This document shows positions 21,531 through 24,601 of a DNA stretch of 64,000 nt, in pieces; positions within the stretch are counted from its first letter, which is position 1; each line of letters starts with the position of its first letter. The stretch comes from Escherichia coli (GTDB lineage Bacteria > Pseudomonadota > Gammaproteobacteria > Enterobacterales > Enterobacteriaceae), in assembly GCF_003334335.1 (NCBI RefSeq), contig NZ_QOWQ01000020.1; one strand, written 5' to 3'. A program made the position numbers and the translations under genes. The notes under the pieces were generated by a model. That model was given only the letters and a program-made list of their open reading frames with translations, made no database searches and had not been told where the DNA came from.

Positions 21531-22724
21531 ATGACGGAACAAGAAAAAACCTCCGCCGTGGTTGAAGAGACCAGGGAGGCCGTGGACACCACGTCACAAC
21601 CTGTCGCAACAGAAAAAAAGAGTAAGAACAATACCGCATTGATTCTCAGCGCGGTGGCTATCGCTATTGCTCTGGCGGCGGGCATCGGTTTGTATGGCTG
21701 GGGTAAACAACAGGCCGTCAATCAGACCGCCACCAGCGATGCCCTGGCTAACCAACTGACGGCATTGCAAAAAGCCCAGGAGAGCCAAAAAGCCGAGCTG
21801 GAAGGCATTATTAAGCAACAAGCTGCACAACTTAAGCAGGCGAATCGTCAGCAAGAAACGCTGGCAAAACAGTTGGATGAAGTCCAACAAAAGGTCGCCA
21901 CCATTTCCGGCAGCGATGCTAAAACCTGGCTGCTGGCTCAGGCCGATTTTCTGGTGAAACTCGCCGGACGGAAGCTGTGGAGCGATCAGGACGTCACGAC
22001 CGCTGCAGCGTTGCTGAAAAGTGCAGACGCCAGCCTGGCGGATATGAATGACCCGAGTCTGATTACCGTTCGTCGGGCAATTACCGATGATATCGCCAGC
22101 CTTTCTGCAGTATCGCAGGTGGATTATGACGGCATCATCCTTAAGCTTAATCAGCTTTCAAATCAGGTAGATAACCTGCGTCTGGCCGATAATGACAGCG
22201 ATGGTTCGCCGATGGATTCAGACGGTGAAGAGCTTTCCAGTTCCATCAGCGAATGGCGTATCAATCTGCAAAAAAGCTGGCAGAACTTTATGGACAACTT
22301 CATTACGATTCGCCGTCGTGATGACACCGCCGTACCGCTGTTAGCGCCAAATCAGGATATCTATCTGCGCGAAAATATTCGCTCTCGCCTGCTGGTCGCA
22401 GCACAAGCTGTACCGCGTCACCAGGAAGAGACTTATCGCCAGGCGCTGGAGAACGTCTCCACCTGGGTACGTGCTTACTACGATACTGATGATGCCACCA
22501 CCAAAGCGTTCCTCGACGAGGTGGACCAGTTAAGCCAGCAAAATATCTCGATGGATCTTCCGGAAACCCTGCAAAGCCAGGCGATGCTGGAAAAACTGAT
22601 GCAGACTCGCGTGCGTAACCTGCTGGCACAACCGGCAGCGGGGACAACGGAAGCTAAACCTGCACCTGCACCTGCACCTGCACCGCAAGCTGATACTCCG
22701 GCAGCCGCGCCGCAAGGAGAATAA
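21531..22724 (+). CDS. hemX: HemX membrane protein with C-terminal Pro-Ala repeat
   Basis: 397-aa ORF; N-terminal TM segment, coiled-coil region, PAPAPAPAP tail. Confidence 0.92.
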
Positions 22725-22726
22725 CC

Positions 22727-23923
22727 ATGCTAAAAGTGTTATTGCTCTTTGTGTTGCTGATTGCGGGGATCGTGGTTGGCCCGATGATTGCCGGCCATCA
22801 GGGTTATGTGCTGATCCAGACCGACAACTACAATATCGAAACCAGCGTCACGGGCCTGGCGATCATATTGATTCTGGCGATGGTAGTGCTGTTTGCCATT
22901 GAGTGGCTACTGCGGCGGATCTTCCGCACTGGCGCGCACACCCGTGGGTGGTTTGTCGGACGTAAGCGTCGCCGTGCACGTAAGCAGACCGAACAGGCGC
23001 TGCTGAAACTGGCGGAAGGCGATTATCAGCAAGTTGAAAAGCTGATGGCGAAAAATGCCGATCACGCGGAACAACCGGTGGTGAACTATCTACTGGCTGC
23101 CGAAGCCGCGCAACAACGTGGTGATGAAGCACGCGCCAACCAACATCTGGAACGCGCAGCGGAGCTGGCCGGCAACGACACCATTCCGGTAGAAATCACC
23201 CGCGTACGTCTGCAACTGGCCCGTAATGAAAACCATGCTGCACGCCACGGCGTGGATAAGCTGCTGGAAGTTACGCCACGCCATCCGGAAGTATTACGTC
23301 TGGCGGAACAGGCGTATATCCGCACAGGTGCATGGAGTTCGCTGCTGGATATTATCCCATCAATGGCGAAAGCCCATGTTGGTGATGAAGAACATCGTGC
23401 AATGCTGGAACAACAGGCATGGATTGGCCTGATGGATCAGGCGCGTGCCGATAACGGTAGCGAAGGTTTGCGTAACTGGTGGAAAAACCAAAGCCGGAAA
23501 ACGCGTCATCAGGTAGCGTTGCAGGTGGCAATGGCGGAACATCTTATTGAATGTGACGATCATGATACTGCCCAGCAAATTATCATCGATGGCCTGAAAC
23601 GCCAGTACGACGATCGCCTACTGCTGCCGATTCCTCGACTGAAAACAAACAATCCGGAACAGCTGGAAAAAGTGCTGCGCCAGCAAATCAAAAACGTCGG
23701 CGATCGCCCGCTGTTGTGGAGCACACTGGGCCAGTCACTGATGAAGCACGGAGAATGGCAGGAAGCATCGCTCGCCTTCCGCGCAGCGCTGAAACAACGT
23801 CCGGACGCCTACGATTACGCATGGCTTGCCGACGCGCTGGACAGACTGCACAAGCCGGAAGAAGCTGCAGCGATGCGTCGCGACGGTTTGATGTTAACGT
23901 TGCAGAATAACCCGCCACAGTAG
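22727..23923 (+). CDS. hemY: TPR membrane protein HemY
   Basis: 398-aa ORF immediately after hemX. Confidence 0.94.
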   Translation: MLKVLLLFVLLIAGIVVGPMIAGHQGYVLIQTDNYNIETSVTGLAIILILAMVVLFAIEWLLRRIFRTGAHTRGWFVGRKRRRARKQTEQALLKLAEGDYQQVEKLMAKNADHAEQPVVNYLLAAEAAQQRGDEARANQHLERAAELAGNDTIPVEITRVRLQLARNENHAARHGVDKLLEVTPRHPEVLRLAEQAYIRTGAWSSLLDIIPSMAKAHVGDEEHRAMLEQQAWIGLMDQARADNGSEGLRNWWKNQSRKTRHQVALQVAMAEHLIECDDHDTAQQIIIDGLKRQYDDRLLLPIPRLKTNNPEQLEKVLRQQIKNVGDRPLLWSTLGQSLMKHGEWQEASLAFRAALKQRPDAYDYAWLADALDRLHKPEEAAAMRRDGLMLTLQNNPPQ

Positions 23924-24177: not shown

Positions 24178-24601
24178 TCGTTTATTATGCCACAGAGAAT
24201 CGGGAAATAACATCCCTTAACACTTGTTATGAGATAATTCTGTAATCCTCTTTGCTTCCTGAGTAATAACTTCCTGAGTGAATATTTAACCTGAGCTTGA
24301 TCCTACACATACTTATTATGAATGATAAAATTCATTCAATTAATAACACATATATTAATTGCCGTTAAAACTAAAAACAGCATCAATAATCAACGCGATA
24401 TAATAAACCTGCCTTACATATCAACTGCGCCAGAGGTAGGATTGAAAACGCTCTCCTGATTTTCCAATTCATTTTCTGGATAAATAAATAATTTATTTTT
24501 GTCACTATTATTTATGTAATCATCCTGTCAGGGAGAGGGATCTCAATTATCAATGCTTAATTACGTCATCATTTTGATGACATGAAACCGGAGCATTTTG
24601 C

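Follow-up and report, generated by a model that had tools for sequence, protein, structure and literature searches.

The perfect CCTGCA hexanucleotide tract near the 3' end of hemX in the window (the whole stretch of E. coli DNA that was analysed, 64,000 nucleotides) is the same locus as two published typing markers, CVN014 and EHC-1, and as such is not new. Unit number at this tract differs among E. coli strains, and it does so in whole units that leave the hemX reading frame unchanged. Taken together, the observations are best explained by a known VNTR inside hemX that varies by slippage and whose length is probably near-neutral, an explanation in which we have high confidence. The tract and the two genes around it occupy the following positions in the window.

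21531-22724, plus strand: hemX coding sequence, 397 aa (open reading frame, NCBIfam NF008173, Pfam PF04375, RefSeq annotation of matching records).
22727-23923, plus strand: hemY coding sequence, with one CVN014 primer site inside it (open reading frame, RefSeq annotation of matching records).
22659-22682, plus strand: four perfect CCTGCA units, the variable tract itself, CVN014 allele 4 (read from the sequence).
22658-22684, plus strand: limits of the unbroken period-6 pattern, ACCTGC in 4.5 copies (Tandem Repeats Finder; 100% matches, score 54).

A hexamer repeat in hemX had been described in an earlier note on this DNA; its four units are confirmed, and the span 22657-22685 given there correctly brackets the periodicity. 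Across 22640-22699 the sequence reads GGGGACAACGGAAGCTAAA, the four CCTGCA units and CCGCAAGCTGAT, with the codons GCT AAA before the tract and CCG CAA after it, and the units encode (Pro-Ala)x4, residues 377-384 of the 397 in HemX. The note had spoken of a PAPAPAPA tail near the hemX 3' end. The location stands, but the tract is not the extreme C-terminus, as 42 nt separate it from the hemX stop codon, and 13 residues plus the stop follow it, including the conserved ...PAAAPQGE end. Among perfect non-trivial hexamer repeats with at least three copies, the CCTGCA run is the only one in the 64 kb window; when the window was simulated 200 times with a second-order Markov model, runs of three copies occurred 0.01 times on average and runs of four not at all. 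The repeat exceeds chance, and its short units lie head to tail as in a VNTR or microsatellite. Elsewhere in the window, the spacer downstream of hemY contains a 15/16-nt unit in 1.9 copies (24255-24284; Tandem Repeats Finder score 53) and a run of three ATAA at 24480.

The open-access papers searched do not give the gene name hemX for CVN014, and the link between this marker and the Pro-Ala tail of HemX was therefore drawn by primer mapping. A full-text literature search that paired hemX with tandem repeats or MLVA returned only an unrelated Salmonella SNP table. All four published primers match the window uniquely and with 0 mismatches.

22635-22654, plus strand: CVN014 primer site, GCAGCRGGGACAACGGAAGC (PMC8143711, Table 1).
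22746-22769, minus strand: CVN014 primer site inside hemY, TCCCCGCAATCAGCAAMACAAAGA (PMC8143711, Table 1).
22611-22630, plus strand: EHC-1 forward primer site, GTGCGTAACCTGCTGGCACA (PMC10062581, S5 Table).
22692-22709, minus strand: EHC-1 reverse primer site, CGCGGCTGCCGGAGTATC (PMC10062581, S5 Table).

Each pair faces inward around the tract, and the number of chance matches expected for the CVN014 primers is 0. In its published definition CVN014 has a 6-bp repeat and an allele number of (PS-111)/6, where PS is the product size (PMC8143711). The CVN014 amplicon in the window is 135 bp, and (135-111)/6 = 4, the number of units counted. The same formula, applied to 18 other tract-retaining loci, gave the integers 1-15 and 18, matching the unit count at every locus; it gave a non-integer for E. 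coli NCTC11023, as expected for a deletion that does not follow the repeat. The tract of the window is thus physically the CVN014 locus, with no difference at the sequence level, and the published allele range agrees with the picture from 5,426 genomes described below. It is likewise the EHC-1 locus, whose amplicon in the window (99 bp) is shorter than that of CVN014 and lies wholly within hemX.

Both markers are in established use. CVN014 belongs to the generic E. coli MLVA schemes GECM-7 and GECM-10, where its source is cited as Lindstedt et al. 2007 (PMC8143711, PMC3407997, PMC5217547, PMC3877011), and EHC-1 to the Japanese 17/18-locus MLVA scheme for EHEC O157, O26 and O111 (PMC10062581). 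In the MLVA literature CVN014 has been credited with the 'largest variation' and, within its scheme, termed 'the most variable locus', descriptions that fit the genome data; to judge by title, the literature on this marker extends to Shigella.

The earlier note had also proposed that the in-frame hexamer tract would vary between strains, and that counting its units over many genomes would decide the matter. The count was made, and the unit number is not constant over hundreds of strains: in the sampled genomes it ranges from 1 to 18, with one further strain that has no tract, and length otherwise moves only in 6-base steps with the frame kept. A 221-nt query spanning the tract found the locus in each of the 5,426 complete genomes of E. 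coli; identity was at least 99% in just 183 of them. The matches spanned 203, 209, 215 and so on up to 281 nt, each equal to 221 plus or minus a multiple of six, and a 104-nt query repeated this pattern, including a span of 188 nt. Identity bands of the shorter query are unusable for counting four-unit alleles, since alleles of seven or more units split into two high-identity pieces that fall in the same bands.

Allele frequencies were taken from two systematic samples of 60 rows each, with unit number read from the match span and checked against the sequence for the fetched loci. These 120 rows fell into 16 length classes, with frequencies that describe the database, biased as it is towards laboratory strains and outbreak clones, and not nature: one row with 0 units, 2 with one, 19 with two, 5 with three, 10 with four, 16 with five, 19 with six, 12 with seven, 11 with eight, 8 with nine, 5 with ten, 5 with eleven, 2 each with twelve, thirteen and fourteen, and one with eighteen. 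The four-unit allele of the window accounts for about 8% of the sampled genomes, and the Simpson diversity of unit number over the 120 rows is about 0.90. Alleles without a tract (1/120) or with a single unit (2/120) are both rare. K-12-type strains have two units, and BL21-type strains six. In copy number that differs among strains, too, the tract is a VNTR.

Nineteen sequences covering every span class were fetched, including one wider locus for gene context. Between their conserved flanks the number of CCTGCA units (1-15 and 18) is the sole length difference, apart from the NCTC11023 deletion, and hemX is annotated as an intact coding sequence of matching length in every record; a unit of two codons leaves the frame untouched whatever the copy number. 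The longest allele seen, 18 units, is a lower bound for the maximum of the collection, as a synthetic 20-unit query ranks matches by flank identity and recovered perfect alleles of up to 15 units while missing the interrupted 18-unit one. An assembly artefact was considered as the cause of the length variation and rejected, since the MLVA papers record the same polymorphism independently, by sizing PCR fragments. In the genome searches the matching places outnumbered the records by four or five, with at most two per genome and one of them on a plasmid, so that the hemX-hemY junction is present twice in a few genomes.

Variation is equally visible inside single clones. O157:H7 genomes carry 5, 6, 8, 12, 13 and 15 units, in agreement with the repeat numbers published for EHC-1 in O157, where the quartiles run from 5 to 12 and vary by clade. 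Among ST131 isolates, single-locus variants usually differ at CVN014, whose alleles there run from 2 to 11 (Naseer et al. 2012, PMC3407997).

Several unusual alleles depart from the simple ladder. The 18-unit allele of strain Res13-Lact-PEA14-20 (NZ_CP062871.1) has the structure (CCTGCA)6 CTTGCA (CCTGCA)4 CTTGCA (CCTGCA)6, and its two variant CTTGCA units, encoding Leu-Ala, stand exactly five units apart, which suggests that the allele arose through duplication of a five-unit block and not through single-unit steps. In NCTC11023 (NZ_LS483297.1) an in-frame deletion of 39 nt, aligned to window positions 22659-22697, takes away the whole Pro-Ala tract and, beyond it, five further codons (PQADT), and hemX is still annotated as intact. 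The same strain has a SNP in a CVN014 primer site; together with the deletion, this leads one to expect an off-ladder or failed CVN014 result. The three-unit allele of strain 2013C-4830 (NZ_CP027325.1) ends in a CCTGTA unit (Pro-Val). Interruptions of this kind usually stabilise a microsatellite. Two proteins were noted as well. One HemX of 485 aa from ENA (P0001) is 88 aa longer than that of the window and has the interrupted tract PAPAPAPTPAPAPAP; its extra length probably sits at the N-terminus. Another, of 435 aa from JGI (P0112), has a tail that runs out of frame after ...AQPAAAPA and continues across the hemY region, for which a frameshift or a sequencing error is the probable cause.

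The perfection of the units, the steps of whole units, the variation within clones and the signature of block duplication make replication slippage the most likely mechanism, to judge from the allele pattern. Nascent and template strands would misalign by whole units during replication, each event gaining or losing 6 bases, that is, one Pro-Ala pair, and occasionally several units would shift together. As the unit is two codons long, the frame would be kept, and both HemX and the product of the abutting downstream hemY would still be made. Folding predictions for a 10-unit tract as single-stranded DNA gave hairpins with self-complementary TGCA cores as their stems, at -11.3 kcal/mol (z-score -4.4) for one strand and -13.7 kcal/mol (z-score -3.0) for the other; slipped intermediates could be stabilised by such structures. 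Phase-variable contingency loci also mutate at a high rate through slipped-strand mispairing of short tandem repeats, the process proposed here for the hemX tract. Those loci, however, switch genes on and off, whereas the hemX unit is 6 bases long, the frame is unchanged and all alleles seen are intact. A phase-variation switch was accordingly rejected, the 6-nt unit lying inside the coding sequence and the fetched alleles leaving hemX intact.

The host protein is a member of the HemX family: it scores 719 bits against NCBIfam NF008173 (cutoff 313) and matches Pfam PF04375 with E = 3.7e-108 over residues 130-363, so that the tract (residues 377-384) falls beyond the domain. Only 2 nt separate the hemX stop from the hemY start. 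The best RefSeq match to the 221-nt query, at 100% identity over its length, is E. coli O157:H16 98-3133, in whose annotated record the gene order is cyaA, then hemC-hemD-hemX-hemY, then aslA. RefSeq and NCBIfam name the product 'uroporphyrinogen-III C-methyltransferase'; the Pfam scan of HemX found no methyltransferase domain, only the HemX domain and weak coiled-coil-like matches, and the name looks like a legacy label and not a demonstrated activity. HemX has been described in one preprint as a distant homologue of Mic60 (10.1101/2022.06.14.496148). The Keio deletion of hemX is viable, and HemX is therefore dispensable; the deletion strain is less sensitive to gentamicin (PMC12282077). From its composition and the single N-terminal hydrophobic segment of the protein, the tail of HemX is predicted to be disordered and periplasmic.

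A protein search gave HemX homologues of at least 82% identity, a shallow alignment; these are conserved up to ...RVRNLLAQP and again at the final ...PA(A/T)APQGE, and the stretch between varies by genus. At the position of the tract, Salmonella has TVSTAAPATQTDA, with no Pro-Ala run, and Citrobacter species have short, differing P/A runs. In C. sedlakii the number of AAP units is variable, giving proteins of 394, 397 and 400 aa, which would make it, judging by the protein sequences, a separate case of repeat polymorphism outside Escherichia; P0024, P0014/P0015 and P0027/P0029 of this species differ by whole AAP units. HemX tails of the C. gillenii/freundii type contain PAPAPAPAP runs. These differences of sequence and length between genera, together with the loss of the tract in NCTC11023, point to a tail under weak constraint. 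Since the tail differs between genera, can be deleted whole and lies after the conserved domain, tract length is probably near-neutral, and changes in it would accumulate fast in this Pro/Ala/Thr-rich stretch, even within single clones.

Two other accounts of the length polymorphism in E. coli have to be set against slippage with near-neutral length. Length differences might derive mainly from homologous recombination, with hemX alleles imported between lineages and not changed locally by slippage; E. coli does recombine, and the flanking variants QADT/QGDT and AAG/AVG accompany some alleles. Yet O157:H7 genomes whose flanks are 99.7% identical differ by up to 10 units, MLVA profiles of ST131 isolates differ at CVN014 only (PMC3407997), and the differences are always whole numbers of identical units, all of which leaves an origin mainly by recombination very improbable. 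In the other account tract length would be functionally tuned: the Pro-Ala stretch would serve the HemX tail as a stiff spacer whose lengths are selected by lineage, so that variation is adaptive and not neutral. How far the tail of this Mic60-like inner-membrane protein reaches, or how stiff it is, would then depend on the number of Pro-Ala pairs, with lengths selected in each lineage. If this were true, CVN014 would be a functional tuning knob and more than a typing marker.

Some P/A-rich stretch with a ...PAAAPQGE end is indeed kept in Escherichia, Citrobacter and Salmonella, and loss of hemX has a phenotype, the lower gentamicin sensitivity cited above (PMC12282077). In the present data, however, the argument for tuning comes solely from how seldom tract-less and one-unit alleles occur (3 of 120 rows), a scarcity that may stem from mutation dynamics or from a degree of selection to retain a spacer. 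Sixteen length classes coexist in a broad distribution, length varies widely within single clones, a strain exists in which the whole tract is deleted, other genera lack the repeat at this position, the tract lies outside the conserved HemX domain, and the literature examined reports no link between length and phenotype. We therefore regard functional tuning as improbable, and its specific form, in which pair number sets the reach or stiffness of the tail, as slightly more improbable still. Pro-Ala low-complexity linkers do occur in bacterial envelope proteins, for example at the OmpA hinge, and in the E2 lipoyl-domain linkers. The HemX tract resembles them in being an alternating Pro-Ala stretch outside a folded domain that tolerates changes of length; it differs in joining its domain to a 13-residue end with no second domain, and a linker role for the HemX tail would be putative.

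The repeat also leaves a trace on the opposite strand.

22530-22715, minus strand: open reading frame of 61 aa with a TTG start and the motif RCRCRCRC (from the list of open reading frames; judged not to be a gene).

It is present as the earlier note had described it, and the view taken there, that the repeat creates it and that it is spurious, holds. One could suppose instead that it encodes a real Arg-Cys-repeat peptide and that the repeat matters on the minus strand, as the frame is open in all 19 alleles. This openness is automatic, because the reverse complement of the unit, TGCAGG, contains no stop codon in any frame, and each CCTGCA unit simply adds 2 aa, so that the length of the peptide would shift from strain to strain. 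The frame also starts at TTG and is contained entirely in hemX, NCBIfam has no match for it, and none of the RefSeq records inspected annotates it. An antisense gene was rejected on these grounds as a mechanical open reading frame, and a functional peptide here is extremely improbable.

When E. coli, EHEC O157 and ST131 included, is to be typed quickly by PCR, few markers are as informative as the CVN014/EHC-1 tract. Public-health laboratories already type E. coli with it, and recognising the tract in the window adds nothing new as a discovery. The additions made here are small: an explicit link between CVN014/EHC-1 and the Pro-Ala tail of HemX, and a census over complete genomes with 1-18 units and one deletion allele. 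The link between marker and gene, together with the census, could aid in-silico MLVA from assemblies. For annotators the locus calls for caution, as its repeat creates a false antisense open reading frame, and the length of HemX itself differs between strains through the number of units.
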